Positions 2,996 through 27,577 of a stretch of 28,749 bases of DNA are shown piece by piece; the stretch's first letter is position 1; every line of letters starts with the position of its first letter. This DNA comes from an uncultured Bacteroidia bacterium (GTDB lineage: Bacteria; Bacteroidota; Bacteroidia; Bacteroidales; UBA932), in assembly GCA_902797895.1 (NCBI GenBank), contig CADBUS010000078.1:1-28749 (forward strand), in the 5' to 3' direction. The notes beneath the pieces were generated by a model. It searched no databases, was not told where the DNA came from, and saw nothing but the letters and a program-made list of their open reading frames with translations. A program made the position numbers and the translations under genes.

Positions 2996-3060
2996 TTGAA
3001 TCTTTGGGCTATTGTGCTCAAGGTTAATTTTTGATTACTAACACTCAAAACTGATAGATT

Positions 3061-4044
3061 ATGGCAAAAGGACCTATTACCCAATTTATTGACCATCATT
3101 ACCGTCATTTCAATTCTGCAGCCTTGGTAGATGCTGTTAAGGCATACGAGCAACTTTTGGCAGAGGGTGGAAAGATGATGCTTGCAATGGCCGGCGCAAT
3201 GAGTACGGCTGAACTTGGGCTTTCGCTTGCAGAGATGATTCGCCAAGATAAGTTCTCTATTATCTCCTGTTCTGCTAACAACTTGGAGGAGGATATAATG
3301 AACCTTGTGGCACACTCTCACTATAAGAGAGTTCCAAACTATAGAGACCTTACACCGGAGATGGAGCAAGAGCTGTTAGACAATCACCTCAATCGTGTTA
3401 CAGATACTTGTATTCCGGAGGAAGAGGCTTTCAGAAGATTGGAAGACCACCTGCTTGATGCTTGGAAAGATTCTGCAGCAAAGGGCGAAAGGCTATTTCC
3501 TTACGAGTTTATGTATAAGATTTTACGTAGCGGAGTTTTGGAACAATATTATGAGATAGATCCTAAAGACAGCTGGGTACTTGCTGCCTGCCAAAAGAAT
3601 ATACCTATTGTAGTGCCGGCTTGGGAAGATTCTACTACCGGTAACATCTTTACCGCCCACTGTATTAAGGGAGAGCTTGACCCTCACTTGGTTAAGGGTG
3701 GTATAGAAACTATGATGCACCTTGTGGATTGGTACAAAGCCAATAACCGCCCTGGTATAGACAGAGGTACGGGCTTCTTCCAGATTGGTGGTGGTACTGC
3801 CGGAGATTTCCCAATCTGCTGCGTACCAATGATGGAGCAAGACTTACAGTGGAAAGGTACTATGCTATGGCAATACTTCTGCCAGATTTCAGACTCCACA
3901 ACCTCGTATGGTTCATACTCCGGAGCTGTTCCAAATGAGAAGATTACTTGGGGAAAGCTCGCCACCGATACCCCTAAATTCATAATTGAAAGCGATGCCA
4001 CAATAGTTGCTCCGCTTATGTTTGCCCATATACTCGGCTGGTAA
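3061..4044 (+). CDS. Deoxyhypusine synthase family protein
   Basis: LAMAGAMSTAELG, SANNLEED, GFFQIGGG, SDSTTSYGSYSGAVPNEKITWGKL (catalytic Lys in EKITWGK), ESDATIVAPL. Confidence 0.92.
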   Translation: MAKGPITQFIDHHYRHFNSAALVDAVKAYEQLLAEGGKMMLAMAGAMSTAELGLSLAEMIRQDKFSIISCSANNLEEDIMNLVAHSHYKRVPNYRDLTPEMEQELLDNHLNRVTDTCIPEEEAFRRLEDHLLDAWKDSAAKGERLFPYEFMYKILRSGVLEQYYEIDPKDSWVLAACQKNIPIVVPAWEDSTTGNIFTAHCIKGELDPHLVKGGIETMMHLVDWYKANNRPGIDRGTGFFQIGGGTAGDFPICCVPMMEQDLQWKGTMLWQYFCQISDSTTSYGSYSGAVPNEKITWGKLATDTPKFIIESDATIVAPLMFAHILGW

Positions 4045-4064
4045 TAACCTTTTAATTTATAACT

Positions 4065-4751
4065 ATGAACAGATTTTTTGCTTTTTTATTAACCTTTGCC
4101 GCACTACTTGCTACAAGTAGCTGTAAGGATGGTAGTACTACCACTAAATCAGAAATAGAGAGTAGTACTTGTTCTGAGATATATAAAGATGCTCCTATAG
4201 GTAGCCGTTCTTATCACGATGTTTACGGCCCTGTTAAGAGAATTGTATATGCAGATGGAAGCGCTGTGGATTTTAACGAGCAGGGAGAAAGCCTACAAAT
4301 GCTCGAAGATGACAAGAAATACAAAGAGTTTAACAAAGAGTTTTTAAGTGAGGGGGAGTCTTTGATTAAGTATGACGATAAAGGCAGGCTTATCAGTTTG
4401 CAAGATATCTATACAGATTGCTATACAGAATTTGAGTATAACGGCAAATATATTATCAAGAGAATATTCCATCCGAACGATTTAGGGCCTTATGAGTCTC
4501 CGGATTATTATGCCTATAGTGCTAACGGAGAGCGTGTTGCTTCTTTTAATGCAAAAATTACCCCTTACAAGGTTCAAAATAAACCAGAAGATTTTGAGTT
4601 AATTCTTTGTATGCCGGATATTCTCACTTGTCAAATAGAATATTATACCATACTCAAAAGGGATAATTATGGCAATTGGACAGAGAGGCAGACAAAAGAC
4701 CTTGAAGGCAATATTACCACAGAAAGAAGAACCATAGAATATTTTGAATAA
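4065..4751 (+). CDS. Hypothetical lipoprotein with YD-like beta repeats
   Basis: Signal peptide with lipobox TSSC; KYDDKGRL and KRDNYGNWTER segments. Confidence 0.7.
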   Translation: MNRFFAFLLTFAALLATSSCKDGSTTTKSEIESSTCSEIYKDAPIGSRSYHDVYGPVKRIVYADGSAVDFNEQGESLQMLEDDKKYKEFNKEFLSEGESLIKYDDKGRLISLQDIYTDCYTEFEYNGKYIIKRIFHPNDLGPYESPDYYAYSANGERVASFNAKITPYKVQNKPEDFELILCMPDILTCQIEYYTILKRDNYGNWTERQTKDLEGNITTERRTIEYFE

Positions 4752-4771
4752 TAACTTAAAAATCAACAACT

Positions 4772-5311
4772 ATGAAAAGAGTAATATTTGTATTGGCACT
4801 TATTGCAACCACTTTGTTAAGCGCAAGTTCCTTTGCACAAAAAGGAGTGGATAAGGATATAGAGGAGATTAGAAAACAATACTCTGAGGCTCTTGAGAGC
4901 CTTCAGTACAGAACGGATGAAGAATACCCTGCCCGAAATCTTGTAACTGTAAACTCAGATGAGATGTGGCCGGGCAGCGGAGGGCACAAAACCTCCACCA
5001 CCATCTTTTTTGATGTAGATTTAGATGAGGGAGCCGGAATTGTGCGCACTCCTTTCTTTGCTCGTGTAAAGTACAACATTGCTGCAAGAAACTACTACTA
5101 TGAAGTTTTGTTTGACAGAGATGGTGGCAAACCCCTATTCTACTACACCAAAATTGAGACTTACGACAAGGGGCCTGTGGAGTGCCGCTACTACTACAAA
5201 AACGGCAAAGCAATTAAAACAATCTGCCCTGTGCAACACGAAGAAATTCCATCCGCACAGCAAGCATATCAAGAGGGAGAGAATTTGACAAAGCTGTTAT
5301 CACTCTTTTAA
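4772..5311 (+). CDS. Hypothetical secreted protein
   Basis: Sec signal peptide ending SFA|Q (Bacteroidota-style N-terminal Gln); Tyr-rich beta C-terminus. Confidence 0.7.
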   Translation: MKRVIFVLALIATTLLSASSFAQKGVDKDIEEIRKQYSEALESLQYRTDEEYPARNLVTVNSDEMWPGSGGHKTSTTIFFDVDLDEGAGIVRTPFFARVKYNIAARNYYYEVLFDRDGGKPLFYYTKIETYDKGPVECRYYYKNGKAIKTICPVQHEEIPSAQQAYQEGENLTKLLSLF

Positions 5312-5375
5312 TCAGAATTTTAAGACAATAATTTTAAGTAACATTTGTTGAAAAACAATTAAAGCTATAATACTT

Positions 5376-6971
5376 ATGTCAGATAAACTTTTACTACTCG
5401 GCGATGAGGCACTTGCCCTGGCCGCAATACATTCGGGGCTTTCCGGTGTATATGCTTACCCCGGCACGCCATCTACCGAAATCACCGAATTTATTCAGAA
5501 TCATCCTCTTGCCAAAGAGAGAGGGCTTCACTCCAAGTGGAGTTGCAATGAGAAAACCGCTATGGAGGCGGCTCTCGGAGCATCGTTTGCCGGAAAAAGG
5601 GCGCTTGTTTGTATGAAGCACGTTGGTATGAATGTTTGTGCAGACGGATTTATAAACTCTGCAATGACCGGCACCAACGGCGGCCTTGTTGTGGCAGGTT
5701 GCGACGATCCTTCTATGCACTCTTCTCAAAATGAGCAAGATTCTCGCTTTTATGCAGACTTTGCAATGGTGCCTTGCTTTGAGCCATCCTCACAGCAGGA
5801 GACCTATCAGATGACAAGAGATGCCTTTGATTTTTCAGAAAAAGAGAAACTACCTGTGCTTATGCGCCTTACAACACGTATGGCACACTCCAGAGCTGTT
5901 GTAAAAACAGGCGAGATAAGAGAGGAGAATCCTCTGCGCTTCTCACCAGAGGAGGATTCAAGGAGATGGGTACTTCTGCCGGCAAACGCAAGGGTTAGAA
6001 ACGAGGTGTTGGTTAAGCAATATTTGGAGCTGGAACAGGAGAGCGCAAAGAGCCCATACAATAAGCTGACAAAGGGAAAGGATAACTCTATAGGTATAAT
6101 AGTGAGCGGTATAGCTTATAACTACCTTATGGAGAACTACCCCGATGGTTGCCCATATTCAGTACTGAAAATATCTCAATACCCTCTTCCTAAGTCTCTT
6201 GTAAACGAGCTTGCACAGCAGAGCAAATCTATTTTGGTTATTGAGGAGGGGCAGCCTTTCATAGAGCAAAAGATTAAGGGAATACTTCCTACCCCTATTC
6301 CTATACACGGCCGCTTGGACGGTACACTTCCACGCACAGGAGAACTAAATCCTGATTGCGTAAGAAAAGCTCTGGGTATGAAAGAGTTGGAGGCAGGTAA
6401 AAAATCTGAAGTAACTGTACCTCGCCCACCGGCACTCTGCCAGGGATGCGGCCATAGAGATTTCTACACCGCCCTAAACAATGTTCTTAAAGATTATCCT
6501 ACTGCCAAGGTATTCAGCGATATAGGCTGCTATACTCTCGGTTGGTTAGCTCCTTTCCACGCTTTCCACACCTGCGTAGATATGGGAGCCTCAATTACAA
6601 TGGCAATAGGAGCAGCAGAGAGCAAGGTACACCCATCTGTGGCAGTTATAGGAGACTCTACCTTCACCCACAGCGGAATGACCGGCTTGTTGGATGCAGT
6701 TAATATGAAGGCAAACATTGTTGTCTGCATTTCAGACAACCTTACCACAGGTATGACCGGCGGCCAAGATAGCGCAGGAGTTGGAAGAATAGAGTCTATC
6801 TGCCAGGGCATTGGAGTTGCGCCTGAGCATATAAGGCTTATTGTTCCGCTGCCAAAGAACTATCCTGATATGGAAAAGGCAATCAGAGAGGAGCTTGAGT
6901 ATGAGGGAGTTTCTGTTATAGTTTGCCGCAGAGAGTGCATTCAAACCGCTAAAAGACATATCAAAAAATAG
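5376..6971 (+). CDS. iorA: Indolepyruvate:ferredoxin oxidoreductase alpha subunit
   Basis: YPGTPSTEI, NEKTAME, MKHVGMNV, DDPSMHSSQNEQDSR, RPPALCQGCGHR, SDIGCYTLG, TPP motif GDSTFTHSG...DN. Confidence 0.95.
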   Translation: MSDKLLLLGDEALALAAIHSGLSGVYAYPGTPSTEITEFIQNHPLAKERGLHSKWSCNEKTAMEAALGASFAGKRALVCMKHVGMNVCADGFINSAMTGTNGGLVVAGCDDPSMHSSQNEQDSRFYADFAMVPCFEPSSQQETYQMTRDAFDFSEKEKLPVLMRLTTRMAHSRAVVKTGEIREENPLRFSPEEDSRRWVLLPANARVRNEVLVKQYLELEQESAKSPYNKLTKGKDNSIGIIVSGIAYNYLMENYPDGCPYSVLKISQYPLPKSLVNELAQQSKSILVIEEGQPFIEQKIKGILPTPIPIHGRLDGTLPRTGELNPDCVRKALGMKELEAGKKSEVTVPRPPALCQGCGHRDFYTALNNVLKDYPTAKVFSDIGCYTLGWLAPFHAFHTCVDMGASITMAIGAAESKVHPSVAVIGDSTFTHSGMTGLLDAVNMKANIVVCISDNLTTGMTGGQDSAGVGRIESICQGIGVAPEHIRLIVPLPKNYPDMEKAIREELEYEGVSVIVCRRECIQTAKRHIKK

Positions 6972-6977
6972 AGGAAT

Positions 6978-7562
6978 ATGAAAAAAGATATAATTTTATC
7001 AGGAGTTGGTGGCCAGGGTATTCTCTCCATAGCCACCGTTATAGGCTGGGCCGCATTAGACCAAAACCTCTATCTCAAACAGGCAGAGGTACACGGAATG
7101 AGCCAAAGAGGCGGCGATGTGCAGAGTAACCTCAGAATTTCATCTTCTGAGATTTACAGCGATCTTATTCCTAAAGGAGAGTGCGATATGATTATCTCTA
7201 TGGAGCCTATGGAGGCACTACGTTACCTGCCTTGGCTCTCGCCAAAGGGATGGATAATTACCAGCAGCGCACCATTTGTAAATATCCCTAACTATCCTCA
7301 AATTGAGGAGATTGAGAAAGAGCTAAAAAAATCTGCCAATCTTATAAAAATAGATTCAGAGGCTATTGCAAAGGAGATTCAGGCCCCAAGAAGCTCAAAT
7401 ATGGTACTGCTTGGAGCTGCTGCAAGATTTATTGAGATTATTAAAAAAGAGAATCTGCAGGAGGGAATAAAGAATGTATTTATGCGCAAGGGAGAGGAGA
7501 TGGTTGCCACCAACCTCAAAGCCTTTGAGGCAGGATACGAGTTTGCCCAAAAGAGTCTGTAA
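6978..7562 (+). CDS. iorB: Indolepyruvate oxidoreductase beta subunit
   Basis: GVGGQGIL, EVHGMSQRGGDV, SNMVLLGA; 6 nt after iorA. Confidence 0.95.
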   Translation: MKKDIILSGVGGQGILSIATVIGWAALDQNLYLKQAEVHGMSQRGGDVQSNLRISSSEIYSDLIPKGECDMIISMEPMEALRYLPWLSPKGWIITSSAPFVNIPNYPQIEEIEKELKKSANLIKIDSEAIAKEIQAPRSSNMVLLGAAARFIEIIKKENLQEGIKNVFMRKGEEMVATNLKAFEAGYEFAQKSL

Positions 7563-7603
7563 TACTCTATGGCATAGAATATTGTTTAACCAAAAAAAAA
7601 GTA

Positions 7604-8923
7604 ATGCTAAATAAACCTATAGAAAAGAGCGTATTGGATGGCATCCTAAAAGAAATGGATATATCCGATATATCAAATGCCACTATAAGACAGTGTGTTG
7701 CAATAGCCAACAAGTTGGAGGCACTTTGCGGAGAGGAGTTTATACATCTTGAGATAGGCGTGCCCGGAATACCGGCCTGCCCTGTAGGAGTTGAGGCTCA
7801 AAAGAGAGCTTTGGACAACAACATAGCGCACGAGTATCCGCCTGTTGGTGGTATTCCTGTGCTTAAAAAGAGTGCCTCAAAGTTCTTGAAGGCATACGCC
7901 GATATTGATATAGATGCCGAGTGCATAGTACCTACAGTAGGCTCAATGCAGGGGAGTTTTAACCTTATATTGGAGTGCTCACAGTTAGATCCTAAAAAAG
8001 ACACCATACTCTTTATAAACCCTGGTTTTCCGCCAAATATGGGGCAGGCCAAAGTATTGGGTATCAGGTCTGAATCCTTTGATATATACAACTATAGGGC
8101 AGATAAGCTCAGGCCAAAGTTGGAGGAGTATCTCTCTACCGGCAGAATTGCCGCAATACTCTACTCCAACCCTAACAACCCTGCTTGGATATGCCTGAAC
8201 GAGGATGAGCTTAAAACTATCGGCGAGTTGGCTACCAAGTACGATACCATAGTACTTGAGGATTTGGCCTACTTCTGTATGGATTTCAGAACAGATCTCT
8301 CCAAGCGCGGAGAGGCTCCGTTCCAACCTACAGTTGCCAGATATACAGACAACTACATAATAATGCTCTCCGCCTCAAAAATATTCAGCTACGCAGGAGA
8401 GAGAATTGCTGTGGTAGCCTTCTCCAACAAGCTCTTCAGAAGGGAGTATCCTGAACTGCGCAGAAGGTATAAGATTGGCAGAATGGGAGATAACTATATA
8501 CTTACCTACCTCTATGTAGCCTCGTCAGGTGTTTCACACTCAGCGCAGTATGCCTACGCCGCTCTTTTAGAGGGTGCTGCAGAGGGCAAGATAGATTTTA
8601 TCTCAGAGATGGTCAAGTATGGCAAGAGAGCCCACAAATCAAAGGAGATTTTTGAGAAAAACGGTTTCCACATTGTATATGACAAAGATTTGGACAAAAA
8701 GGTTGGAGACGGATTTTTCTACACAATAGGCTACAAAAACTTCTCCTGTTCCGAGCTTATTACCGGCCTGCTCAGATGTGGAATTACCGCAATAACACTC
8801 AACACTACAGGCAGTCTGCAAAACGGAATAAGAGCGTGTGTATCAAGGCTTTCTACAGATGAGCAGTTTGAGGCTTTAGATAAGAGGCTTGCAATGTTTG
8901 CAGCTCTGTATGAGAATGCTTAA
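7604..8923 (+). CDS. PLP-dependent aminotransferase, class I/II
   Basis: NPNNP, EDLAY, SASKIFSYAGER (PLP Lys), C-terminal GIRAC. Confidence 0.9.
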   Translation: MLNKPIEKSVLDGILKEMDISDISNATIRQCVAIANKLEALCGEEFIHLEIGVPGIPACPVGVEAQKRALDNNIAHEYPPVGGIPVLKKSASKFLKAYADIDIDAECIVPTVGSMQGSFNLILECSQLDPKKDTILFINPGFPPNMGQAKVLGIRSESFDIYNYRADKLRPKLEEYLSTGRIAAILYSNPNNPAWICLNEDELKTIGELATKYDTIVLEDLAYFCMDFRTDLSKRGEAPFQPTVARYTDNYIIMLSASKIFSYAGERIAVVAFSNKLFRREYPELRRRYKIGRMGDNYILTYLYVASSGVSHSAQYAYAALLEGAAEGKIDFISEMVKYGKRAHKSKEIFEKNGFHIVYDKDLDKKVGDGFFYTIGYKNFSCSELITGLLRCGITAITLNTTGSLQNGIRACVSRLSTDEQFEALDKRLAMFAALYENA

Positions 8924-8971
8924 AAAAGAGTAAGGAGCGTTTTATTGAACATTATCAAATAGATTATTTTT

Positions 8972-10273
8972 ATGGAGCAGATAAAATATGTAACGCCCCA
9001 AGAGGCTGTAATGTGCGTAAAATCCGGAGACGGAGTCTATTTCCAAGGTAGTACCTCCGTACCTGAGGTTTTGCAACAGGCGCTCGCAGAGAGAGGGCCT
9101 CAGCTGCGCAATGTAAAGGTTTACAGCGCATTCTGCATACCAAGAGGAGAAGCCCCTTTCTGCAAAGAGGAGTATAAAGATTCCTTTATTGTGCGGAGCC
9201 TCTTTTTGTGTGCAGACCAAAGAGAATGGGTTGCCAAAGGATACGGAAGTATGATTCCTGCCTTTTTGGGAGAGATTCCCTTTCTGTTCAGAAGCGGGCA
9301 GCTACCTGTAAATGTGGCCTTTATCAACTGTTCCCTGCCTGATGAGGAGGGATATTGCAGCTACGGCATATCTGCAGACTTGGCGGTTTCTGCCGTTGAG
9401 AGCGCACAATATGTTGTAGCTCAAATAAATAAAAGTATGCCATACCTCTACGGAGGAGCAAGAATACATATCTCCAAGATAGATGCAGCTGTTGAGTGCG
9501 ATATTCCGCCTGTGGCTTTGGAGTTTGGGGAGCCTACCCCTACCGAAACCGCCATCGGTAATTTTATTGCAAATGAGATTCCGGACGGGGCTACGCTCCA
9601 GATTGGAGTTGGAGGTATTCCAAACGCTGTACTCAATGCCATTAAGCATCACAAACATCTTGGATTGCATACAGAGGCAATGACAGACGGAGTGGTAAGG
9701 CTTATGGAGGAGGGAGTTATAGACAACAGCCAAAAGAAGTTCAAACCAGGGGTTAGCGTAGGCTCCCTCGCATTGGGCTCAAAGCGTATGTATGAGTTTT
9801 TGCACTACAACAAAGATGTTGAGTTCCACGATGTTGCCTTAACTAACGATCCTCAGATAATAAGGCAGAATCCAAAGGTTATGGCAATAAACTCGGCACT
9901 TGAGATAGATCTTACCGGCCAAATATGTGCAGATAGTATTGGAGAAAAAATCTTCTCCAGTGTTGGCGGCCAGCACGATTTTATGTATGGCGGCGCACTA
10001 TCGGAGGGTGGAAAAACCTTTATCGCTCTGCCGGCTGCAACCAACAAGGGAAAGAGCAAGATAGTTCCAACCCTAACTCCGGGAGCAGGTGTTGTAACAA
10101 CCAGATTCCAAGCTCAATATATTGCAACAGAGTATGGTATAGCCTATCTGCGAAACAAGGATTTGGCAGAACGTGCCAAGGCTCTGATTGCCATTGCAGC
10201 ACCGGAGCATCGTGAGGCTTTGGAGAAGGCTGCCTTTGAACGCTTCGGCTACTCGTTCAAGAGGTTATTCTAA
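8972..10273 (+). CDS. Family I acyl-CoA transferase / acetyl-CoA hydrolase (Cat2/AbfT-like)
   Basis: LQIGVGGIPNAV, GLHTE (catalytic Glu), INSALEIDLTGQ, GGQHDF, IATEYGIA. Confidence 0.92.
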   Translation: MEQIKYVTPQEAVMCVKSGDGVYFQGSTSVPEVLQQALAERGPQLRNVKVYSAFCIPRGEAPFCKEEYKDSFIVRSLFLCADQREWVAKGYGSMIPAFLGEIPFLFRSGQLPVNVAFINCSLPDEEGYCSYGISADLAVSAVESAQYVVAQINKSMPYLYGGARIHISKIDAAVECDIPPVALEFGEPTPTETAIGNFIANEIPDGATLQIGVGGIPNAVLNAIKHHKHLGLHTEAMTDGVVRLMEEGVIDNSQKKFKPGVSVGSLALGSKRMYEFLHYNKDVEFHDVALTNDPQIIRQNPKVMAINSALEIDLTGQICADSIGEKIFSSVGGQHDFMYGGALSEGGKTFIALPAATNKGKSKIVPTLTPGAGVVTTRFQAQYIATEYGIAYLRNKDLAERAKALIAIAAPEHREALEKAAFERFGYSFKRLF

Positions 10274-11610
10274 GAATGTGCAGGGCTTAAAAGGTCCTGC
10301 ACACTTTTTACAGGGTTGAATGTAGAGAGTGGCACCTCAACAAATTGGGTATTCCAACGGCTCATAGAGCCATTCCACAAACCAGGTAACTCCTTGTAAT
10401 ATGCAGTTTTACCCTCAAAGCTCTTTTCCACATTCAGAGCGGCGGAAAAGTCTGCAAACTTTTTCAGATTGAATTTCTCTCCTGCAAAGTTCTTGATGCA
10501 ACAGACTATATCCACAGGGTTAAAGTGGGTAGATTGTTTCATCAGGTTCTTATCCTCAATTTGCACGCTCTCGAGTATTTGCAAACTTGTAGAGCCATCG
10601 GCCTCGTTGCAGATAAATGGCCCTCCACCCGGCTGCCCCTCATTCTTAACCATTCCGCAAACCCTTATAGGGCGATTGAGCTTTTCTATAACTCTGTCTG
10701 ATAGGTCAAAAATATCGCCCTCTTTTTTCATAACCACAGAGAACTCTCTGCTCAAAAATTTAAGTGCAGCATCTATCTCATTTTTAAGCCTATCCATAGC
10801 TTCAGAGAATGCGCTGCTCCTCTTTGGGCCATTAGCGGTAACGGCATCTTGCACCGCCTCGCAAATATTCAAGATATGCAGATAGCACTCTCCCTGCAGC
10901 TCTACGGCTCTGCCGAGCAACACTCTCTTCCAATGAACAGTATCCTCCAACAGGCTCTCCTTAACCACATTATCTATATTCTTAATAAAGATGAAATCTG
11001 CATCTATGCTCCCCAAGTTCTTTAGCAGAGCGCCGTGCCCGCCAGGTCTTTTAAGCAAAGAGCCATCTGCAAGGAGGAAAGGCTTGCCCTCTTTGGTATA
11101 TGCCTGAACATCGGTAGAGGCAGATTGTACGGAGAATGAGATATTGAACTTGCAGCCCAAGTCTCTCTCAAGCTGTGGCACCACCCTATTGCAGAGCCTC
11201 TTAAATGCGGCTCTATGCTCTTTGGATATTGTAAAGTGCAAATTAACAACATCATCGCTCCCTTTGGCATATAAGGCCCCCTCTACAAGATGCTCCTCAA
11301 AAGGTGTACGCACTCCGTATTCATACTTATGGAATGGTATAATCCCCTTAGGCATTGAGTAGTAACGCTCTATATGCTCCACATCTATAGCCAAACGGTT
11401 ACTGCCGCTCTTTAGCTCCTTTATCACCTGCTTGTTGTTCTCAAACAGTGGCTTGAACATTCTGGTTGCAGCACCGCTGCTCGGCACAAACTTGCACAAC
11501 GAGCCATTAAAAGAGTCTGCACTTTGCAACGCTCTCTTTATCTGCACCTTAGATAACTTCTTAATACCGCCGTTCTCCACAGAAGCGGCCTGACTAATAC
11601 TTAAACTCAT
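10270..11610 (-). CDS. DUF4301 family protein (UDP-sugar pyrophosphorylase-like)
   Basis: PSSGAATRMFK, RPGGHGALLKNL, IKNIDNV, GQPGGGPF, HFNPVDIVC, ELPGLWNG, FVEVPLSTFNPVK. Confidence 0.88.
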   Translation of the reverse strand: MSLSISQAASVENGGIKKLSKVQIKRALQSADSFNGSLCKFVPSSGAATRMFKPLFENNKQVIKELKSGSNRLAIDVEHIERYYSMPKGIIPFHKYEYGVRTPFEEHLVEGALYAKGSDDVVNLHFTISKEHRAAFKRLCNRVVPQLERDLGCKFNISFSVQSASTDVQAYTKEGKPFLLADGSLLKRPGGHGALLKNLGSIDADFIFIKNIDNVVKESLLEDTVHWKRVLLGRAVELQGECYLHILNICEAVQDAVTANGPKRSSAFSEAMDRLKNEIDAALKFLSREFSVVMKKEGDIFDLSDRVIEKLNRPIRVCGMVKNEGQPGGGPFICNEADGSTSLQILESVQIEDKNLMKQSTHFNPVDIVCCIKNFAGEKFNLKKFADFSAALNVEKSFEGKTAYYKELPGLWNGSMSRWNTQFVEVPLSTFNPVKSVQDLLSPAHS

Positions 11611-15722: not shown

Positions 15723-16136
15723 ATGCAGTTAACTCATATTGAGCATCTTGGTATAGCAGTTAAATCCCTTGAGGAGTCTATACCATATTATGAGAAGATG
15801 TTGGGCCTTAAATGCTACTCCATTGAGGAGGTGAAAGATCAGAAAGTTAAAACAGCCTTCTTTAAGATAGGGCAGACCAAGATTGAGCTTCTTGAAAGCA
15901 CAGATCCTGAGGGCACAATAGCCAAATTTATAGAGAAGAGAGGAGAGGGAATACATCACATTGCCTTTGCAACCCCTTCTGTAACAGAGTGTTTAGATGA
16001 GTTAAGCCAAAAGGGCGTTCAGCTTATAGATAAGGCTCCGCGCAAGGGAGCAGAGGGGCTTAATATCGCCTTTTTACACCCAAAATCAACCCACGGTGTT
16101 CTTACCGAGGTTTGCGAGAATCCTAATGAAAAATAG
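15723..16136 (+). CDS. mce: Methylmalonyl-CoA epimerase
   Basis: HIEHLGIAV, KIELLE, GEGIHHIAF, FLHPKSTHGVLTE (VOC metal ligands). Confidence 0.96.
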   Translation: MQLTHIEHLGIAVKSLEESIPYYEKMLGLKCYSIEEVKDQKVKTAFFKIGQTKIELLESTDPEGTIAKFIEKRGEGIHHIAFATPSVTECLDELSQKGVQLIDKAPRKGAEGLNIAFLHPKSTHGVLTEVCENPNEK

Positions 16137-16152
16137 TTAAAGTAAGAATATT

Positions 16153-17703
16153 ATGAGTCGTCAACTCGAAGAAGTTAAATCGTTAATCTCGCTAAGAGAG
16201 AAAGCACGTTTGGGGGGAGGTCAGAAAAGAATTGACTCCCAGCACGAAAAGGGAAAATTTACAGCAAGAGAGAGAATAGCTATGTTGCTCGATGAGGGCA
16301 GCTTTGAGGAGTTTGATATGTTTGTAACCCACCGCTGTACCAACTTTGGAATGGAGAAGAACCGTGTACTCGGCGATGGTGTTGTAACAGGTTATGGTAC
16401 TATTGGCGGCAGGCTCGTTTATGTGTTTGCCCAAGATTTTACTGTATTGGGAGGCTCTCTGAGTGAGACCTTTGCACAAAAGATATGCAAGGTTATGGAT
16501 ATAGCTATGAAGGTAGGCGCACCTGTTATCGGAATCAACGATTCCGGCGGAGCGCGTATCCAAGAGGGTGTAAATGCCTTGGCCGGCTATACAGAGATAT
16601 TCCAGAGAAATATTCTTGCAAGCGGTGTCATTCCGCAGATTTCAGCCATATTCGGCCCTTGCGCAGGCGGTGCTGTTTACTCCCCTGCCCTAACCGATTT
16701 CAACATTATGTCCAAGGGGAGTTATATGTTCCTCACAGGCCCTAAGGTTGTAAAATCTGTCTTGGGAGAGGATGTTACTCAGGAGACACTTGGAGGTGCA
16801 AGCGTACACAGCAGCAAGAGCGGTGTGGCTCACTTTTCCGTTGATAATGAGGAGATTGGTATAGAGACAATAAAGGAGCTTCTCTCCTATCTGCCTCAGA
16901 ACAATATGGAGAGGACTCCACTTGTTCCAACCAACGATCCAATCAACAGAATGGACGATCTGCTTAACGACATTATACCGGACAACCCTAACAAACCATA
17001 CAATATGTACTCCGTTATCCAATCCATTGTTGATGACGGCAAGTTCCTTGAGGTGCATAAAGATTATGCAAAGAGCCTCATAGTTGGCTTTGCAAGGTTC
17101 GACGGAATTGCAGTAGGTATTGTTGCCAACCAGCCATCTGTGCTTGCAGGTGTATTGGATTCAAATTCAAGCCGCAAGGGTGCAAGATTTGTTCGCTTCT
17201 GCGATGCCTTCAATATCCCTATCATAACTTTGGAGGATGTACCGGGCTTCTTACCTGGCACACAGCAGGAGTACAATGGTATTATTCTGCACGGAGCAAA
17301 ACTGCTCTACGCATTTGGCGAGGCTACCGTTCCTAAAATAACAGTAGTTTTGAGAAAAGCCTACGGTGGTGCATACTGCGTTATGAGCAGCAAGCATTTG
17401 AGAGGAGATATCAACTATGCTTGGCCTACTGCCGAGATTGCAGTTATGGGTCCGAGCGGTGCCATTGAGATTCTCTATGGCAAAGAGCTTCAGGAGGCAG
17501 AAGATAAGGAGGCGTTCAAGGCAGAGAAGGAGAAAGAGTACAGAGATGCCTTTGCAAACCCTTACAATGCAGCCAAGTATGGTTACATTGATGATGTAAT
17601 TGAGCCACGCAATACCAGATTCAGAATAATCAGGGCTTTACATCAGCTTGAAAACAAGAAACTTACTAACCCTGCTAAAAAGCACGATAATCTTCCACTC
17701 TAA
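16153..17703 (+). CDS. mmdA: Methylmalonyl-CoA decarboxylase alpha (carboxyltransferase) subunit
   Basis: [43 protein letters not shown]; clustered with mce, biotin carrier and beta subunit. Confidence 0.93.
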
Positions 17704-17717
17704 AACAAGGAGAAGAA

Positions 17718-18710
17718 ATGAAGAGAATATTTTCAATAATAGTAGTCTCTCTGCTGCTCATCTCCAAGGGAGTCTTTGCCCAGAGTCCTGTTGATATAAG
17801 GATAAATGAAGTTTTGCCTTACAACATCTCCGGAGTAACAGACGAGAATGGAGAGAGATGCGGCTGGATAGAGCTCTTTAACACCGCCTACGGAATGGTG
17901 GATGTTGCAGGCTTCTATCTTACAGACAATAAGGATAATCCTACCAAGTATATGATTCCTAAAGGGAACAATGCTACCATTATCCCTTTGAGGAAATATT
18001 TGGTGCTTTATGCAGACGGGCAGCCTAACAAAGGGCTCTTCCACACCAATTTCACTCTTAACGGAGTAACCCATCTCTACCTTTACGATTCAGATGGAAA
18101 AACTCTGTTGGATGAGATTGAGATACCGGCCAATATGCCTGAAGATAAATCATTTGGCCGCGTTAAAGATGGCGAGGGAGTACACGTGCCTGTAGGATGG
18201 AGCAAACGCTCGCTCAGAAAAAACTCTATAGATAGCAAAGTTGGAGCAGACGGAGGATTGGCTATTCTGGAACATCCTACTCCGGCCCTTACAAACACAA
18301 CAAAGGCTGTTCAGAGCAAGTCTGAGATAATGAAAGATATGGATCCATACGGAGTTATCTTGGCTCTTACAGCAATGAGCGTGGTATTTCTCTGTCTTGT
18401 AATACTTTACACAGTATTCAAATCTATAGGCAAACGCGCGCTACGCAAAGAGGCCGAGAAGAGAGAAGCTGTTAAAGAGAGCAAGGTGGTTAAGATACCT
18501 TCCGTTGCTAATATCAAAACAGCAGACGGAGCTATCAATGAGGAGGTTATAGCAGCAATAGCTATTGCCTGCCATCTCTATTCTAATGGTATAGACAGCT
18601 CTGTACACGATGTGGAGAGCGGAGTTCTTACATTCAATCGCGATATTTTGAATAACTCTGCTTGGGGCTCCAAAAGCCTAACCCTCAAAGAGGAACCAAT
18701 TATAAAATAA
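17718..18710 (+). CDS. OadG/MmdD-type subunit with N-terminal signal peptide and lamin-tail-like domain
   Basis: Signal VFA|Q; INEVLPYN...DENGERCGWIELFN...GFYLTD; TM helix at about aa 212-235 (AMSVVFLCLVIL); IAAIAIACHLY...HDVESGVLT. Confidence 0.82.
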   Translation: MKRIFSIIVVSLLLISKGVFAQSPVDIRINEVLPYNISGVTDENGERCGWIELFNTAYGMVDVAGFYLTDNKDNPTKYMIPKGNNATIIPLRKYLVLYADGQPNKGLFHTNFTLNGVTHLYLYDSDGKTLLDEIEIPANMPEDKSFGRVKDGEGVHVPVGWSKRSLRKNSIDSKVGADGGLAILEHPTPALTNTTKAVQSKSEIMKDMDPYGVILALTAMSVVFLCLVILYTVFKSIGKRALRKEAEKREAVKESKVVKIPSVANIKTADGAINEEVIAAIAIACHLYSNGIDSSVHDVESGVLTFNRDILNNSAWGSKSLTLKEEPIIK

Positions 18711-18736
18711 TATAAACAACAGAAAAAAATAAAGTT

Positions 18737-19117
18737 ATGAAAGAATATAAGATTAAAGTAAACGGAAACGAGTATAATGTATCTGTAGAGGAGGTAGGTG
18801 GAACTATCAGCAATGTTAGCGTATCTGCTCCAAGACCAACTGCAACAGCTGCACCAAGCGCAGCACCTGCAGCAGCTCCTGCAAGCGCACCTGCATCTGC
18901 AGGCGGAACAAAAGTAACCTCTCCACTTCCTGGAGTTATATTAGATGTGGCTGTAAAAGAGGGAGATGCAGTTAAGAAGGGAGATAAGGTGATTGTTCTC
19001 GAGGCTATGAAGATGGAGAATATCATTGAGGCTACTGCAGATGGAGTTATCAAAGAGATAAAGGTTAAAAAGAGCGATTCAGTACTCGAGGGAGATACAC
19101 TTGTTATAATAGGTTAA
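18737..19117 (+). CDS. mmdC: Biotin carboxyl carrier subunit of the decarboxylase
   Basis: EAMKM biotinylation motif after an Ala/Pro linker. Confidence 0.95.
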   Translation: MKEYKIKVNGNEYNVSVEEVGGTISNVSVSAPRPTATAAPSAAPAAAPASAPASAGGTKVTSPLPGVILDVAVKEGDAVKKGDKVIVLEAMKMENIIEATADGVIKEIKVKKSDSVLEGDTLVIIG

Positions 19118-19140
19118 TTTGTTGTAAAGCATAGCAGATT

Positions 19141-20292
19141 ATGATTTTAGAATCAAACTTTGCAGCAAATCTCAATCAGTTTGCTCAATATACAGGCTTC
19201 GCCAATGTTACGGCAGGGCATATTATAATGATCCTGATCGGCTTGGTGTTTGTCTATTTGGCCATTAAGAAAGACTGGGAGCCTCTGCTGCTGATTCCTA
19301 TCGGATTCGGTATGGTTATAGGCAACATCCCTCTCTTCCCAGGTATGCAGGTGGGCATTTATGAGGATGGCTCTGTACTAAACATTCTCTACCAAGGAGT
19401 TAGGAGAGGTTTCTACCCTCCGCTGATTTTCCTTGGCATTGGTGCTATGACAGACTTCTCCGCCCTTATCTCCAACCCTAAGTTGCTGCTGGTTGGCGCT
19501 GCTGCGCAGTTCGGTATCTTTGCCGCCTACGCAGGTGCGCTTGCATTGGGCTTTACCCCTGCAGAGGCAGGAGCTATAGGTATTATAGGTGGAGCAGACG
19601 GCCCTACCGCCATCTTCCTTTCCGGTAAATTGGCTCCGGATTTGATTGGAGCTATATCGGTATCGGCCTACTCCTATATGGCCTTGGTGCCTGTAATCCA
19701 GCCTCCTGTAATGAGGATGCTTACAAGCAAAAAGGAGAGACTTATCAGAATGAAGGCCCCAAGAGCCGTATCGCAGCAGGAAAAGATTATATTCCCTATT
19801 GTGGGCTTTTTAATCACCGCCTTCATAGTGCCGTCAGGTATTCCGTTGCTCGGTATGCTCTTCTTTGGTAACTTGCTTAAAGAGAGCGGAGTTACAAGGC
19901 GACTTGCAGAAACTGCACGCGGTCCGCTCAACGATATAGTAGTTATACTTATAGGTATTACGGTAGGTTGTTCAACTCAAGCAGACAAATTCTTGCAGGG
20001 TAAATCTGTGCTGATTTTTGTACTTGGTGCAGCTTCTTTCTTTGTTGCTACATTTACAGGAGTGCTTTTCTGCAAGATTATAAACCTCTTCCTAAAGGAG
20101 GGCAACAAGTTGAATCCGCTTATTGGAAATGCCGGAGTATCAGCAGTTCCGGACTCTGCCCGCGTATCGCACGTACAGGGGCAGAAGTACGATCCGTCAA
20201 ACTTTTTGCTTATGCACGCAATGGGCCCTAATGTGGCAGGTGTGATAGGCAGTGCTGTGGCTGCAGGTATCCTGCTCGGATTCCTCAGCTGA
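19141..20292 (+). CDS. mmdB: Na+-translocating decarboxylase beta subunit (OadB/MmdB)
   Basis: Polytopic; FLGIGAMTDF, GIIGGADGPTAIF, SYMALVP, AGVSAVP, MGPNVAGVIGSA. Confidence 0.96.
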   Translation: MILESNFAANLNQFAQYTGFANVTAGHIIMILIGLVFVYLAIKKDWEPLLLIPIGFGMVIGNIPLFPGMQVGIYEDGSVLNILYQGVRRGFYPPLIFLGIGAMTDFSALISNPKLLLVGAAAQFGIFAAYAGALALGFTPAEAGAIGIIGGADGPTAIFLSGKLAPDLIGAISVSAYSYMALVPVIQPPVMRMLTSKKERLIRMKAPRAVSQQEKIIFPIVGFLITAFIVPSGIPLLGMLFFGNLLKESGVTRRLAETARGPLNDIVVILIGITVGCSTQADKFLQGKSVLIFVLGAASFFVATFTGVLFCKIINLFLKEGNKLNPLIGNAGVSAVPDSARVSHVQGQKYDPSNFLLMHAMGPNVAGVIGSAVAAGILLGFLS

Positions 20293-20321
20293 TAATCAGT
20301 TTTTTAACAAACATTTAAGAT

Positions 20322-20933
20322 ATGCAGGATAAATTGCAAGAGCTCACCCAAAAGCTCTATAATGAGGGGCTCGAAAAGGGCAAGCTGGAGGCCGAGCAGA
20401 TTCTACAACAGGCCAAGAAAAGGGCCGATGAGATTGTAGCGGAGGCTCAAAAGAGTGCAGCCGATATTATAAACGGTGCAGAAAAGCAGGCTCTGGAGCT
20501 TAAAGCAAAGGCAGAGGGCGATATCAGAAGCGCCTCTATGCAAACCATCTCCCAAGTGCGCCACAGCATAGAGGAGGCGGTAAAGATGGAGTGCGTAGAT
20601 AAACCTGTAGCCCAGGCTTTTAACTCACCCGATTTTATGCAGGGTATTATACAGACAATAGTTTCTGCATTCTCTCCGCAGAGTGAGAGCAGCTCTTTGG
20701 AGCTAATTCTGCCGGAGAGCAAAAAGGCTGAGCTTGACGGTTTTATACAGAGCAAACTGAAAGCCAAGTTTGCAGAGGGGCTGAGTGTTAAATATGATAA
20801 AGGTGTAGATAGCGGCTTCAAAATAAGCAGTAAAGGGAGTGGCTACTTTATCGATTTTACACAACAGGCTTTCCAAAATATGATAGCCGGATATATCAGG
20901 CCAAAGACCAGAAAACTTTTATTTGGTGAATAA
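20322..20933 (+). CDS. atpE: V/A-type ATPase subunit E
   Basis: Heptad-rich N-terminus MQDKLQELTQKLYNEG...; GFKI motif; first gene of the cluster. Confidence 0.85.
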   Translation: MQDKLQELTQKLYNEGLEKGKLEAEQILQQAKKRADEIVAEAQKSAADIINGAEKQALELKAKAEGDIRSASMQTISQVRHSIEEAVKMECVDKPVAQAFNSPDFMQGIIQTIVSAFSPQSESSSLELILPESKKAELDGFIQSKLKAKFAEGLSVKYDKGVDSGFKISSKGSGYFIDFTQQAFQNMIAGYIRPKTRKLLFGE

Positions 20934-21606
20934 TTATCACTACATAATAGCCTCGCTTCCGCAGCTCTCAAAGAGTTGGGCAGAGAATAGCTTTGATATT
21001 GATAAGGTTATAGCTGAGATTGTAGAACAGTGTTCTGACTCAGACAGGCAAGCCGTAGAGTTCTTTATAAAGGGCTCTGACGGCAACGGCCTGAGTCGCG
21101 AATACTACGCCAAGGCAGAAAAGAGCCAAAGCCGTTTTACAAAGCTCTACTATAACTTAGATAGGCAGATTCGCAATTTGAAGGTCAAGGCTGTTGCGCA
21201 GGCTCTTTATGGCCCTGAGGAGGCAAAAGAGAAGATTGAGCGCTACTCAATAGAGCTTAATCAGAGCGATCCTTACGGAGAGTATCGCGAGGAAAAAGAG
21301 GATCTTTCTCGGTTAGACAGTGCTGATATTGAGGCACTTTCCGCAATTTTTGCAAACAGCAACATATTGGAGAAAGAGAGGCTGCTTGACGATTTCAAAT
21401 GGGAAAAAATTAACATTTTTACTACATTCGATTACTTCAATCTCGATTACATATTGTCTTTCATTTCCAAATCTCTGCTGATACAGAGGTGGATGAAGCT
21501 CGATAAGGAGAACGGTAAACACCTGTTCCGCAAGTTGGTAGATGAAGTAAGAGGAAGTTTTGATAAAAATAAATTGATTTACCGGATAGATGAAAACAAC
21601 GGGTAA
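20926..21606 (+). CDS. DUF2764 family protein, putative V/A-ATPase subunit C (GTG 20926 or TTG 20923 start)
   Basis: NYHYIIASLP start, LEKERLLDDFKW, FNLDYIL, RWMKLDKENG; lies between E and A. Confidence 0.78.
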   Translation: MNNYHYIIASLPQLSKSWAENSFDIDKVIAEIVEQCSDSDRQAVEFFIKGSDGNGLSREYYAKAEKSQSRFTKLYYNLDRQIRNLKVKAVAQALYGPEEAKEKIERYSIELNQSDPYGEYREEKEDLSRLDSADIEALSAIFANSNILEKERLLDDFKWEKINIFTTFDYFNLDYILSFISKSLLIQRWMKLDKENGKHLFRKLVDEVRGSFDKNKLIYRIDENNG

Positions 21607-23341
21607 AGTAACAGGTATTGTCTCCAACCTTGTAACGGTTGAGGTTAATGCTCCTGTGGCACAAAACGAACTGTGTTACATAGAGTTGGAGGATACAAAG
21701 CTAATGGCGGAGGTCATAAAAGTAAACGGCTCAAGCGTATCTGTACAGGTATATGAGAGTACGCGCGGCCTCAAGGTTGGATGCAGCGTTGTATTTGAGG
21801 GCAAGATGCTTGAGGTTTCACTCGGGCCTGGCTTGCTATCAAGCAATTACGATGGATTGCAGAATAACCTTGCCACAATGGAGGATGTATTTCTCAAAAG
21901 AGGCGAATATACTGCCGCCTTGGATGCAGATAAAAAATGGGAGTTCACCCCTATCGTATCTGCAGGCGCAACGGTTGCGGCAGCAGATTGGCTCGGAGAG
22001 GTAAAGGAGGGATGGTTGCCTCACAAGATTATGGTACCTTTCTCATTTGCAGGAGATTATACCGTTAAGCAGATTGCTCCGCAAGGCAGCTATACCATTA
22101 ACGATACCATTGCTACCCTAACCGACAGCAAGGGGGAGGAGTTTAAGGTAACTATGTGCCAGAGGTGGCCTGTAAAGGTTGCCATAAAGGGGTACAAAGA
22201 GAAACCGCGTCCATACAGAATAATGGAGACCGGCGTTAGGGCAATAGATACCTTCAATCCTATTGCAGAGGGTGGAACAGGCTTTATACCAGGCCCTTTC
22301 GGATGCGGCAAAACCGTTATCCAGCACGCGATAGCAAAGCAGGCGGAGGCAGATGTTATAATAATGGCTGCCTGCGGAGAGCGAGCAAACGAAGTTGTGG
22401 AGATTTTCAAAGAGTTTCCGGAGTTGATAGATTCCAGAACAGGGCGCAAGCTAATTGAAAGAACCACAATAATTTGCAACACCTCAAATATGCCTGTTGC
22501 AGCCCGCGAGGCATCTGTATATACGGCAATGACTATCGCTGAGTATTATAGGGCTATGGGGCTTAAAGTGCTTTTGCTTGCAGACTCTACCTCGCGATGG
22601 GCTCAGGCACTCAGGGAGATGTCAAACAGAATGGAGGAGCTGCCGGGTGCAGACGCCTTTCCTGTTGACCTATCATCCATTATATCCAACTTCTACTCCA
22701 GAGCCGGAATAGTGGTACTGAACAACGGGCAGACAGGCTCTGTAACATTCCTGGGAACTGTCTCACCTGCAGGCGGTAATCTTAAAGAGCCTGTAACAGA
22801 ATCCACCAAAAAGTGCGCAAGATGTTTCTACGCGCTCAACCAGAATCGTGCAGACAGCAAACGCTATCCTGCCATAGACCCTATAGACTCCTACTCCAAA
22901 TACCTTGAGTATCCTGAAATGGAGGAGTTCTTTACGGAAAAGCTCAGCAAGGATTGGGTTAGCAAGGTACTTGCTGCAAGGAATATAACCCTTAGGGGAA
23001 AGGAGGCTTACGACCAGATAAACATTCTTGGAGACGATGGCGTTCCTATGGACTATCACCTCAGATATTGGAAGAGCGAACTTGTGGATTTCATTCTGTT
23101 GCAGCAAGATGCGTTTGATGCAATAGATTGCCAGACTCCACTTAAAAGGCAGGAGTATATGCTCAATTTAGTGCTTGATATATGCAACAAAGAGTATAAG
23201 TTCAGCAGATTTGAGGAGTGCATACAATTCTTCAAGAGCCTTATCAATATAATGAGGCAGATGAACTTCTCCGAGTTTGGCAGCAGCCGCTTCAACGAAT
23301 ACCAGAAACAACTCCAAAATAGAGTAGAAAATGTCCTCTAA
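21590..23341 (+). CDS. atpA: V/A-type ATPase catalytic subunit A
   Basis: Walker A GPFGCGKT, CGERANEV, NTSNMPVAAREAS, DSTSRWAQALRE. Confidence 0.97.
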   Translation: MKTTGKVTGIVSNLVTVEVNAPVAQNELCYIELEDTKLMAEVIKVNGSSVSVQVYESTRGLKVGCSVVFEGKMLEVSLGPGLLSSNYDGLQNNLATMEDVFLKRGEYTAALDADKKWEFTPIVSAGATVAAADWLGEVKEGWLPHKIMVPFSFAGDYTVKQIAPQGSYTINDTIATLTDSKGEEFKVTMCQRWPVKVAIKGYKEKPRPYRIMETGVRAIDTFNPIAEGGTGFIPGPFGCGKTVIQHAIAKQAEADVIIMAACGERANEVVEIFKEFPELIDSRTGRKLIERTTIICNTSNMPVAAREASVYTAMTIAEYYRAMGLKVLLLADSTSRWAQALREMSNRMEELPGADAFPVDLSSIISNFYSRAGIVVLNNGQTGSVTFLGTVSPAGGNLKEPVTESTKKCARCFYALNQNRADSKRYPAIDPIDSYSKYLEYPEMEEFFTEKLSKDWVSKVLAARNITLRGKEAYDQINILGDDGVPMDYHLRYWKSELVDFILLQQDAFDAIDCQTPLKRQEYMLNLVLDICNKEYKFSRFEECIQFFKSLINIMRQMNFSEFGSSRFNEYQKQLQNRVENVL

Positions 23342-24647
23342 CATATTTCAGAAAATATACACCAAGTTGGAATCTATAACAAAGGCTACTGTAACGCTCA
23401 AAGCTACAGGAGTTTCCAACGATGAGCTTGCCAAGGTGGCAGGCCGTTTGGCGCAGGTTGTAAAAATTAAGGGCGATTTGGTTACCCTGCAGGTATTTGA
23501 GGGTACGGAGGGTATTCCAACAAATGCCGAGGTGGAGTTCTTTGGCGAGCCGCCTGCACTCAATGTGGGAGAAGAACTTAGCGGCCGTTTCCTGAATGCC
23601 TACGGAGAGCCTATTGACGGCGGTCCAAAAGTTGAGGGAATCAGAAGATATATCGGAGGGCCGAGCGTGAATCCGTTCAAGAGAAGGCAGCCGTCTGAAC
23701 TTATACCTACCGGAATCGCCGGCATAGATTTGAACAACACACTCGTATCGGGGCAGAAGATTCCTTTCTTTGCAGATCCGGATCAGCCTTATAATCAGGT
23801 TATGGCAGATGTTGCCCTCAGAGCCGATGTAGATAAAATCATACTTGGCGGAATGGGACTCTCCAACGATGACTATCTCTTCTTCCGCCAAAAGTTTGAA
23901 GATGCAGGTGCGCTGAATAAAATAATCTGCTTTGTAAATACTACGGAGGAGCCGCCTGTGGAGAGGCTTCTTATACCTGATATGGCACTTACTGCGGCAG
24001 AGTATTTTGCGGTAGATAAAAACGAGAAAGTGCTTGTGCTTCTTACAGATATGACTCTCTATGCAGACGCTCTCAGTATTGTGAGCAACCGTATGGATCA
24101 GATTCCGAGTAAGGACTCTATGCCTGGCTCGCTCTATTCAGACCTTGCAAAAATTTACGAGAAAGCTGTGCAACTGCCGGACGGAGGCTCTATTACAATC
24201 ATAGCTGTAACTACACTCAACGATGGCGATATTACCCACGCAATTCCGGATAATACCGGCTATATCACAGAGGGGCAGCTCTATTTGAGAAAGGATACCG
24301 ATACCGGAAAGATTATTGTAGATCCTTTCAGAAGTTTATCGAGGCTTAAACAGCTCGTTATCAATAAAAAGACAAGAGAGGACCACAGTCAGGTTATGAA
24401 TACCGGTGTAAGGCTCTTTGCAGATGCGGCCAATGCCAAAACAAAGCTGGAGAATGGCTTTGACCTCTCTGATTACGATATGCGTTGCCTTGAGTATGCA
24501 AAAGAGTACTCAAACAAACTCCTCTCCATAGATGTGAATATAAAGATAGAGGAGATGCTCAATACCGGTTGGAGTCTCTTCCGCAAATACTTCAAACCGG
24601 AGGAGTTAGGTATAAAACAAGAACTTGTAGATAAGTATTGGAAATAG
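23331..24647 (+). CDS. atpB: V/A-type ATPase subunit B
   Basis: TGIAGID, GQKIPFF, LLTDMTLYADAL, PGSLYSDLA, PDNTGYITEGQ. Confidence 0.97.
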   Translation: MSSNIFQKIYTKLESITKATVTLKATGVSNDELAKVAGRLAQVVKIKGDLVTLQVFEGTEGIPTNAEVEFFGEPPALNVGEELSGRFLNAYGEPIDGGPKVEGIRRYIGGPSVNPFKRRQPSELIPTGIAGIDLNNTLVSGQKIPFFADPDQPYNQVMADVALRADVDKIILGGMGLSNDDYLFFRQKFEDAGALNKIICFVNTTEEPPVERLLIPDMALTAAEYFAVDKNEKVLVLLTDMTLYADALSIVSNRMDQIPSKDSMPGSLYSDLAKIYEKAVQLPDGGSITIIAVTTLNDGDITHAIPDNTGYITEGQLYLRKDTDTGKIIVDPFRSLSRLKQLVINKKTREDHSQVMNTGVRLFADAANAKTKLENGFDLSDYDMRCLEYAKEYSNKLLSIDVNIKIEEMLNTGWSLFRKYFKPEELGIKQELVDKYWK

Positions 24648-24656
24648 CCAATAGCT

Positions 24657-25265
24657 ATGGCAATTAAGTTTCAATATAATAAGACCTCTTTGAACAACCT
24701 TAACAAACAGCTGAAGGTGAGGAAGAACGCCTTGCCTACCCTTAAAAACAAGGAGAGCGCGTTAAGAGTTGAGGTTAAGAATGCAAAGAAAAAGAGCGAG
24801 GAGCTTATTGAGCGCCTTGAGCAGACTTTGCGCTCTTACGACTATTTGGCACCTATGTGGAATGAGTTTGAGAACGGGCTTATATCTGTTAAAGATGTGA
24901 TGCTCAAAACAGAGAAGGTAGCCGGAATTAAAACCCCTGCAATAGAGGAGATTATATTTGAGATAAAGGATTTTGACCTCTTTAAGAAGCCGCTTTGGTA
25001 TTCAGACGGAGTGGAGATTCTTAAAAAGATGGCCAAATATGGCATAGAGTCTGAGGTTTACAAAGAGAAGATGAGGATTCTGGACTACTCCAGAAAAAAG
25101 ACCACTCAAAAGGTTAATCTCTACGAAAAAGTTCAGATTCCGGGCTATATGGAGGCCATAAGAAAAATCAAGCGATATATGGAGGATGAGGAGAATCTCT
25201 CCAAAGCCTCCCAGAAGATTGTAAAACAAAGACACACATTGGAGGAGGAGCAAGAGGATGATTAA
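24657..25265 (+). CDS. atpD: V/A-type ATPase subunit D
   Basis: ALPTLKNKE, KKTTQKVNLYEKVQIP, YMEDEE. Confidence 0.93.
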   Translation: MAIKFQYNKTSLNNLNKQLKVRKNALPTLKNKESALRVEVKNAKKKSEELIERLEQTLRSYDYLAPMWNEFENGLISVKDVMLKTEKVAGIKTPAIEEIIFEIKDFDLFKKPLWYSDGVEILKKMAKYGIESEVYKEKMRILDYSRKKTTQKVNLYEKVQIPGYMEAIRKIKRYMEDEENLSKASQKIVKQRHTLEEEQEDD

Positions 25266-27135: not shown

Positions 27136-27145
27136 TAAACAATAA

Positions 27146-27571
<426 letters not shown>

Positions 27572-27577
27572 TTGCAG

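Follow-up and report, generated by a model that had tools for sequence, protein, structure and literature searches.

A conserved iorAB–aminotransferase–CoA transferase operon in an uncultured Bacteroidales bacterium, predicted to link aromatic amino acids and arylacetates

Contig CADBUS010000078.1 of an uncultured Bacteroidales bacterium, analysed over its whole length of 28,749 nucleotides (the window), carries at positions 5376–10273 four genes encoding the two subunits of an indolepyruvate ferredoxin oxidoreductase (IOR), a class I/II pyridoxal phosphate (PLP) aminotransferase and a CoA transferase. Our analysis shows that this operon is real and conserved, and that it represents a known pathway with an altered last step and not a new kind of system, the CoA transferase probably being a non-homologous replacement of the phenylacetate-CoA ligase (PaaK) of sister species. 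Based on its linkage to iorAB and its exchange with PaaK, we are confident that the transferase handles the acyl-CoA product of the IOR, in one direction or the other. The model we favour, to which we give an even chance of being correct, is that the four gene products interconvert aromatic amino acids and arylacetates as a single reversible module, which runs mainly oxidatively, with the transferase taking the place of PaaK.

The four genes all lie on the + strand: iorA (5376–6971, 531 aa), iorB (6978–7562, 194 aa) and the aminotransferase gene (7604–8923, 439 aa), each supported by an open reading frame (ORF) call and a profile match, followed by the CoA transferase gene (8972–10273, 433 aa; PF02550 and PF13336). 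The ORF coordinates confirm the gaps of 6, 41 and 48 nt given in the initial annotation of this DNA, and profile searches bear out the gene identities that it proposed. In a synteny search, the four-gene order recurred in 9 genus genomes, in 3 of 4 carriers from two other families and, among 80 metagenome loci, in 60, and the gene order around a 98% identical transferase in a separately assembled sample is identical. This recurrence is far beyond chance and, together with the short gaps, supports the operon first suggested. Rumen Bacteroidales metagenome-assembled genomes supply the closest loci, and Candidatus Cryptobacteroides and Prevotella the next.

Within the genus, the fourth gene takes one of two forms. 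Nine genomes (G000, G001, G003, G004, G006, G014, G016, G017 and G022) carry the transferase and no true PaaK, and five others (G007, G010, G011, G012 and G020) carry a PaaK-type ligase (TIGR02155, 572 bits) in the same slot, their only transferase being a distant housekeeping type and not the IOR-associated one. No genus genome has both the IOR-associated transferase and a true PaaK, the 26–34% matches to PaaK in transferase carriers belonging to a distant ligase family. The earlier proposal that a CoA transferase stands here instead of PaaK is therefore supported by a mutually exclusive swap, which we read as a pattern and not as a statistic because it comprises few independent events. When 300 genomes were sampled evenly across the order, only four, the carriers from two other families mentioned above, had this transferase type, making its distribution patchy, and true PaaK was not found in any of these four. 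To remove selection bias, the 80 metagenome loci, which form 11 clusters at 90% identity, were retrieved by the transferase alone. iorB or iorAB adjoins the transferase in 70 of them, in three gene orders: 60 have IOR and aminotransferase (one rearranged) and 10 have IOR directly, without the aminotransferase, most of the 10 remaining loci being too short to judge.

Both oxidoreductase subunits match IOR profiles (EC 1.2.7.8). The best profile of IorA is TIGR03336 (E 1.5e-158; 529 bits, under the cut-off of 651), matched over model positions 2–539 of 595, and its YPGTP motif at 28 and thiamine pyrophosphate-binding motif GDSTF at 426 are intact. The C-terminal 2[4Fe-4S] ferredoxin domain canonical for the alpha subunit is absent, and its CxxCxxCxxxC motif was found in 0 of 62 IorA homologues; by its sequence, IorA is a short Bacteroidales form without this domain. 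An external, separately encoded ferredoxin is therefore needed, and the initial description of the operon as self-contained was overstated, since acceptors for the amino group (a keto acid) and for CoA would also have to come from outside the four-gene unit. Knowledge of the PFOR family makes Cys355, Cys358, Cys385 and Cys521 of IorA likely ligands of one cluster. IorB scores 313 bits with the NF005324 equivalog, above the cut-off of 222, a threshold also passed by one control genome, presumably B. thetaiotaomicron. From the family and from the genetics of BT0430 in that species, we infer that IorAB acts on arylpyruvates. The same genome carries ilvE-vorDABC (contig C49), a KOR-like gene (C84), a POR-like gene (C108) and a ptb/buk-like pair (C77), all assigned by length, order and motif. 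Separate POR-, KOR- and IlvE-VOR-type genes would leave the aromatic 2-oxoacids to the IOR; the aromatic assignment made at the outset is supported. Bacteroidales-type iorA-iorB-aminotransferase clusters were also seen in two records labelled Vescimonas and Oscillibacter (Bacillota; L149 and L153), reflecting either horizontal transfer or misbinned contigs.

The aminotransferase belongs to PF00155 (Aminotran_1_2) and retains a PLP-lysine motif at 256–267 with Lys259, as well as Asp220 and Arg410. Its sole close relative of solved structure is the uncharacterised protein of PDB 3G0T (E 3e-129, the next structure matching at E 7e-16), and curated aminotransferase equivalogs (aromatic, aspartate) gave 76 bits at best, all far under their cut-offs. 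We consider it probable that the enzyme is an aromatic or multi-substrate transaminase. Across Bacteroidales, its gene neighbours IOR- or VOR-type oxidoreductases together with PaaK or the transferase, and iorA-iorB-aminotransferase is a common core in Prevotella and others. In six other Bacteroidales families, the same aminotransferase lies beside a four-subunit VOR-type cluster (L171, L172 and L174–L177), with PaaK and an ACT-like protein upstream in L171 and L172. Such neighbourhoods, the promiscuity often seen in family members and the fact that Cryptobacteroides-type genomes with oxidoreductases of VOR size keep the aminotransferase–transferase pair but no IOR would all fit a model in which both enzymes are generalists for branched-chain or bulky acyl groups, serving VOR as much as IOR in a broad amino acid oxidation toolkit. 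However, an IlvE-VOR cluster and a Ptb/Buk-like pair are separately encoded in the genome, a VOR alpha gene was found near the transferase in none of the 80 loci against 70 with IOR, and the swap partner PaaK is an aryl-specific ligase family, which makes this model improbable.

The CoA transferase is a family I enzyme with both domains of that family, a Glu235 that aligns with the catalytic Glu238 of AbfT and a GVGG loop at 212–215. With AbfT/Cat2-like enzymes, including AbfT of C. aminobutyricum (3GK7), P. gingivalis 3EH7 and 3D3U, TtCoAT of T. thermophilus (9VAG) and Yersinia RipA, it shares full-length homology (E 1e-65 to 1e-112), the catalytic Glu, the G(V/I)G loop and a GGQ motif. It differs from them in having Gly26 in place of AbfT His31, a smaller residue also at the position of AbfT Met239, Ala after the catalytic Glu and a two-residue insertion near 57. 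In our tree, the 42 aminotransferase-adjacent transferases form one clade (support 99/100), separate from two paralogues, one a genus-wide housekeeping type and the other AbfT-like, with an invariant signature (Q25-G26-S27-T28, GVGG at 212 and HTEA at 233; 42/42).

AbfT His31 is the proposed contact for the hydroxyl of 4-hydroxybutyrate (PMC3180442). We rejected a 4-hydroxybutyrate CoA transferase (AbfT/Cat2) because glycine replaces this histidine in all 42 clade members and the neighbours are iorAB and the aminotransferase, not 4-hydroxybutyrate pathway genes. The second transferase paralogue of the genome (C164) retains the histidine. The succinate CoA transferases (ScpC/Cat1/AarC), of about 500 aa, were rejected for a protein of 433 aa that reaches 93 of the 659 bits required by TIGR03458 and 74 of the 500 required by NF053853, and But was rejected by a TIGR03948 score of 279 bits against a cut-off of 675. 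The transferase is an IOR-associated member of the Cat2/AbfT-like fold group in a clade of its own, and a probable arylacetyl-CoA transferase; the alternation with PaaK, its own clade with iorAB linkage and the separate POR, KOR and VOR genes point to an enzyme dedicated to arylacetyl-CoA in place of the ligase. Among other loci collected, one (L162, G018:C66) holds a four-gene, succinate-to-butyrate-like cluster via 4-hydroxybutyrate with a dehydratase-like protein, an AbfT-like transferase, an Fe-alcohol dehydrogenase and an acylating aldehyde dehydrogenase. The genus-wide housekeeping transferase (L060–L076 and L080) has a distinct His-rich pocket segment and was not found in the G000 clade; it is a candidate propionyl-CoA:succinate transferase in a genus mostly without ScpC.

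In the mechanism we propose, the aminotransferase would convert Phe or Tyr, and perhaps Trp, to the arylpyruvate, from which IorAB would form arylacetyl-CoA, CO2 and reduced ferredoxin. The CoA transferase would then pass CoA from arylacetyl-CoA to a small acid, most likely acetate, releasing phenylacetate or 4-hydroxyphenylacetate, and the acetyl-CoA formed would keep the thioester energy. Acetate is the likeliest acceptor because characterised relatives of the transferase use acetate or acetyl-CoA (PMC4949257; TtCoAT, bioRxiv 10.1101/2025.10.31.685773). Among the products originally suggested, phenylacetate and 4-hydroxyphenylacetate are likely and indole-3-acetate is the least likely, quantifiable amounts having been reported in 0 of 66 Bacteroidota strains (bioRxiv 10.64898/2026.01.29.702580).

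The initial annotation had also raised succinate as the acceptor, in which case succinyl-CoA would be fed to the nearby Na+ pump Mmd. In full, this variant has the oxidation of aromatic amino acids prime succinyl-CoA for passage through mutase and epimerase to Mmd. Mutase, epimerase and Mmd are indeed encoded, along with Rnf-like genes, and ScpC and SucCD had no match in the genome assembly (1.68 Mb, 84% complete). Moreover, this transferase family has just two members in the genome, the genus-wide housekeeping transferase is missing from the clade to which the genome belongs, and TtCoAT takes succinate among many acids. However, the transferase is only 24% identical to E. coli ScpC and falls far below the TIGR03458 cut-off, its P. 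gingivalis relatives did not use succinyl-CoA (PMC4949257), the KOR-like enzyme can supply succinyl-CoA directly, and a succinate transferase may be unassembled in a genome of this completeness. The mmd genes of the window lie 5.4 kb away, beyond a convergent block, and mmd appears in the fetched flanks of 4 of 89 iorA and transferase loci, 45 of which have enough downstream DNA to judge. The link to Mmd is therefore weak, and we regard an oxidative route with succinate as acceptor as quite improbable.

The net direction of the module is most likely mainly oxidative in this peptide-dependent rumen bacterium, a view favoured by BT0430 knockouts and by broad auxotrophy. In B. thetaiotaomicron, deletion of BT0430 lowered 4-hydroxyphenylacetate (PMC10746243) and abolished phenylacetate (bioRxiv 10.64898/2026.09.28.754936). 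The 84% complete genome yielded no pheA, no tyrA and no trp, leu, ilv (except ilvE), thr or arg pathways, and only isolated his-like matches, so that amino acids would be imported anyway. Oxidation, as first proposed, is plausible, but none of the steps is irreversible and sister species have an activating ligase in this slot; the module may serve oxidation and salvage, depending on condition.

A biosynthetic reading would have the transferase activate rumen phenylacetate, hydroxyphenylacetate or indoleacetate using acetyl-CoA, the IOR carboxylate the product with reduced ferredoxin, and the aminotransferase make Phe, Tyr or Trp in an organism incapable of their de novo synthesis. The occupation of the slot by PaaK elsewhere agrees with such an activating role, and Phe is known to be formed from phenylacetate in the rumen (PMC7356843). 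Aryl-acid salvage by the IOR of Methanococcus maripaludis involves the same enzyme class and intermediates and runs in the reductive direction (cited in PMC3462420), the acid-activating step here being one that the transferase would perform. Prephenate dehydratase was not found in a 7-genome clade (one member being 96% complete) or in the four carriers of the other families, which are 99–100% complete, and the 7-genome clade also lacked matches to prephenate dehydrogenase and TrpA; all five iorA-less genomes tested have prephenate dehydratase. However, HisD, used as a control, is missing from the same genomes, so the loss reflects general auxotrophy, is not specific to aromatic amino acids and does not decide the direction, and a Fisher p of 0.04 overstates the association, kin being non-independent. 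Two genomes (G001 and G006) carry the operon plus de novo Phe/Tyr genes, another (G009, 95% complete) has neither, and the Bacteroides knockouts show oxidative flux. Salvage as the main function is possible, but we consider it doubtful.

Several observations weigh against a mainly oxidative arylacetate module. In the literature searched, neither the transferase clade nor the 3G0T aminotransferase family has a member with a known substrate, and TtCoAT, the best-characterised structural relative of the transferase, is a broad short-chain enzyme (bioRxiv 10.1101/2025.10.31.685773). Many Cryptobacteroides-type loci (L091–L118, G041–G045) keep the aminotransferase and transferase, and iorA was not found in 5 of 5 such genomes tested; the pair must therefore have a use without IOR, and a search upstream of these IOR-less pairs found no decayed iorAB. 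The exchange partner PaaK, as an activating enzyme, fits the reverse direction. The orthology with BT0430 comes from family membership and not from a direct alignment. Finally, the fate of acetyl-CoA is uncertain, since ackA and pta had no good match in the 84% complete genome.

The closest published parallel is BT0430-0429 (PPFOR/IorAB) of B. thetaiotaomicron, likewise a two-subunit IOR, with a role in phenylacetate and 4-hydroxyphenylacetate formation. BT0428, which neighbours it, is presumably a PaaK-type ligase, whereas the iorAB described here precedes genes for an aminotransferase and a CoA transferase, and the 84% complete genome yielded no true PaaK. The same route from amino acid through arylpyruvate and arylacetyl-CoA to arylacetate, with reduced ferredoxin and conserved thioester energy, is used in Thermococcales peptide fermentation (aminotransferase, IOR and ADP-forming acyl-CoA synthetase) and by HpdDEFG-HpdJ-HpdK of Clostridium scatologenes (PMC13285125). 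Unlike these systems, the present operon has an IorA without a ferredoxin domain, and its last step would be carried out by a single CoA transferase with no direct ATP, instead of the phosphotransferase/kinase pair of Clostridium or the ADP-forming synthetase of Thermococcales. A partial literature search found no paper on the four-gene order or on a Bacteroidales arylacetate CoA transferase.

For the release of free arylacetate from arylacetyl-CoA, the usual explanation in Bacteroidales is a thioesterase that is left unnamed (PMC10809373). The operon offers a concrete candidate enzyme for this step that would conserve the thioester. The products matter beyond the bacterium, since phenylacetylglutamine and p-cresol derive from phenylacetate and 4-hydroxyphenylacetate, and human-gut metagenomes are the source of many transferase loci; in the rumen, the module may account for the formation of Phe from phenylacetate, which has long been known there. 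A broader hypothesis, which we hold to be evenly balanced between right and wrong, is that the clade is an undescribed subfamily of CoA transferases acting between arylacetyl-CoA and short-chain acids, common among Bacteroidales of the rumen and the human gut, which has displaced PaaK and lets auxotrophs release arylacetates while conserving energy or rebuild aromatic amino acids without ATP.

A single transcript for the four genes is supported, as a prediction, by the short gaps, the kept order and the lack of internal hairpins, neither the 41- and 48-nt gaps nor the region 5' of iorA containing a stable hairpin relative to shuffles (z 0.3–0.5). The initial statement that there is no clear terminator holds for these two gaps but not for the end of the operon, where a hairpin with a 12-pair stem and a U-run (10277–10303, + strand) begins 4 nt after the transferase gene (−20.6 kcal/mol for 10268–10315; z −5.4, chosen post hoc). 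It falls within the 3' end of a convergent DUF4301 gene and showed no conservation among relatives. Three more + strand genes (3061–5311, gaps of 20–64 nt) closely precede iorA and make the extent of the transcript 5' of it uncertain. A candidate Bacteroidota −7 element (5340–5347, + strand, one mismatch to TAnnTTTG) lies about 36 nt before the iorA ATG and is weak taken alone, but several relatives show exact or near-exact −7 elements at that place, and iorA therefore probably has a promoter of its own. Going upstream, the first exact −7 match that also has a TTTG at the proper spacing lies at 2988, in front of a deoxyhypusine synthase (DHS)-like gene. A sigma-70 promoter scan gave 21 matches against 16.9 expected, a chance level, that consensus being wrong for Bacteroidota.

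Between the 2988 element and the start of the DHS-like gene lies a hairpin (3002–3023, z about −3) which may be a leader structure. The DHS-like gene itself (3061–4044; PF01916, under every named cut-off) and a nearby divergent decarboxylase-family gene (PF02784/PF00278) probably serve polyamine synthesis of the homospermidine type. The two ORFs of 4065–5311 have no Pfam or NCBIfam match and signal-peptide-like N-termini, the first being lipoprotein-like; they are probable exported proteins, found in some close relatives and not in others (L081–L084). Downstream, there is a 4-nt overlap between the DUF4301 gene (10270–11610) and the transferase stop. In another genome (G033, L046), iorAB is succeeded by a co-directional DUF4301 gene that adjoins mmd genes, maybe an old neighbourhood. 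The stretch 15723–28747 is one run of genes for methylmalonyl-CoA epimerase, mmdA/D/C/B and a V/A-type ATPase operon, the mmdD-like ORF having an additional lamin-tail-like domain.

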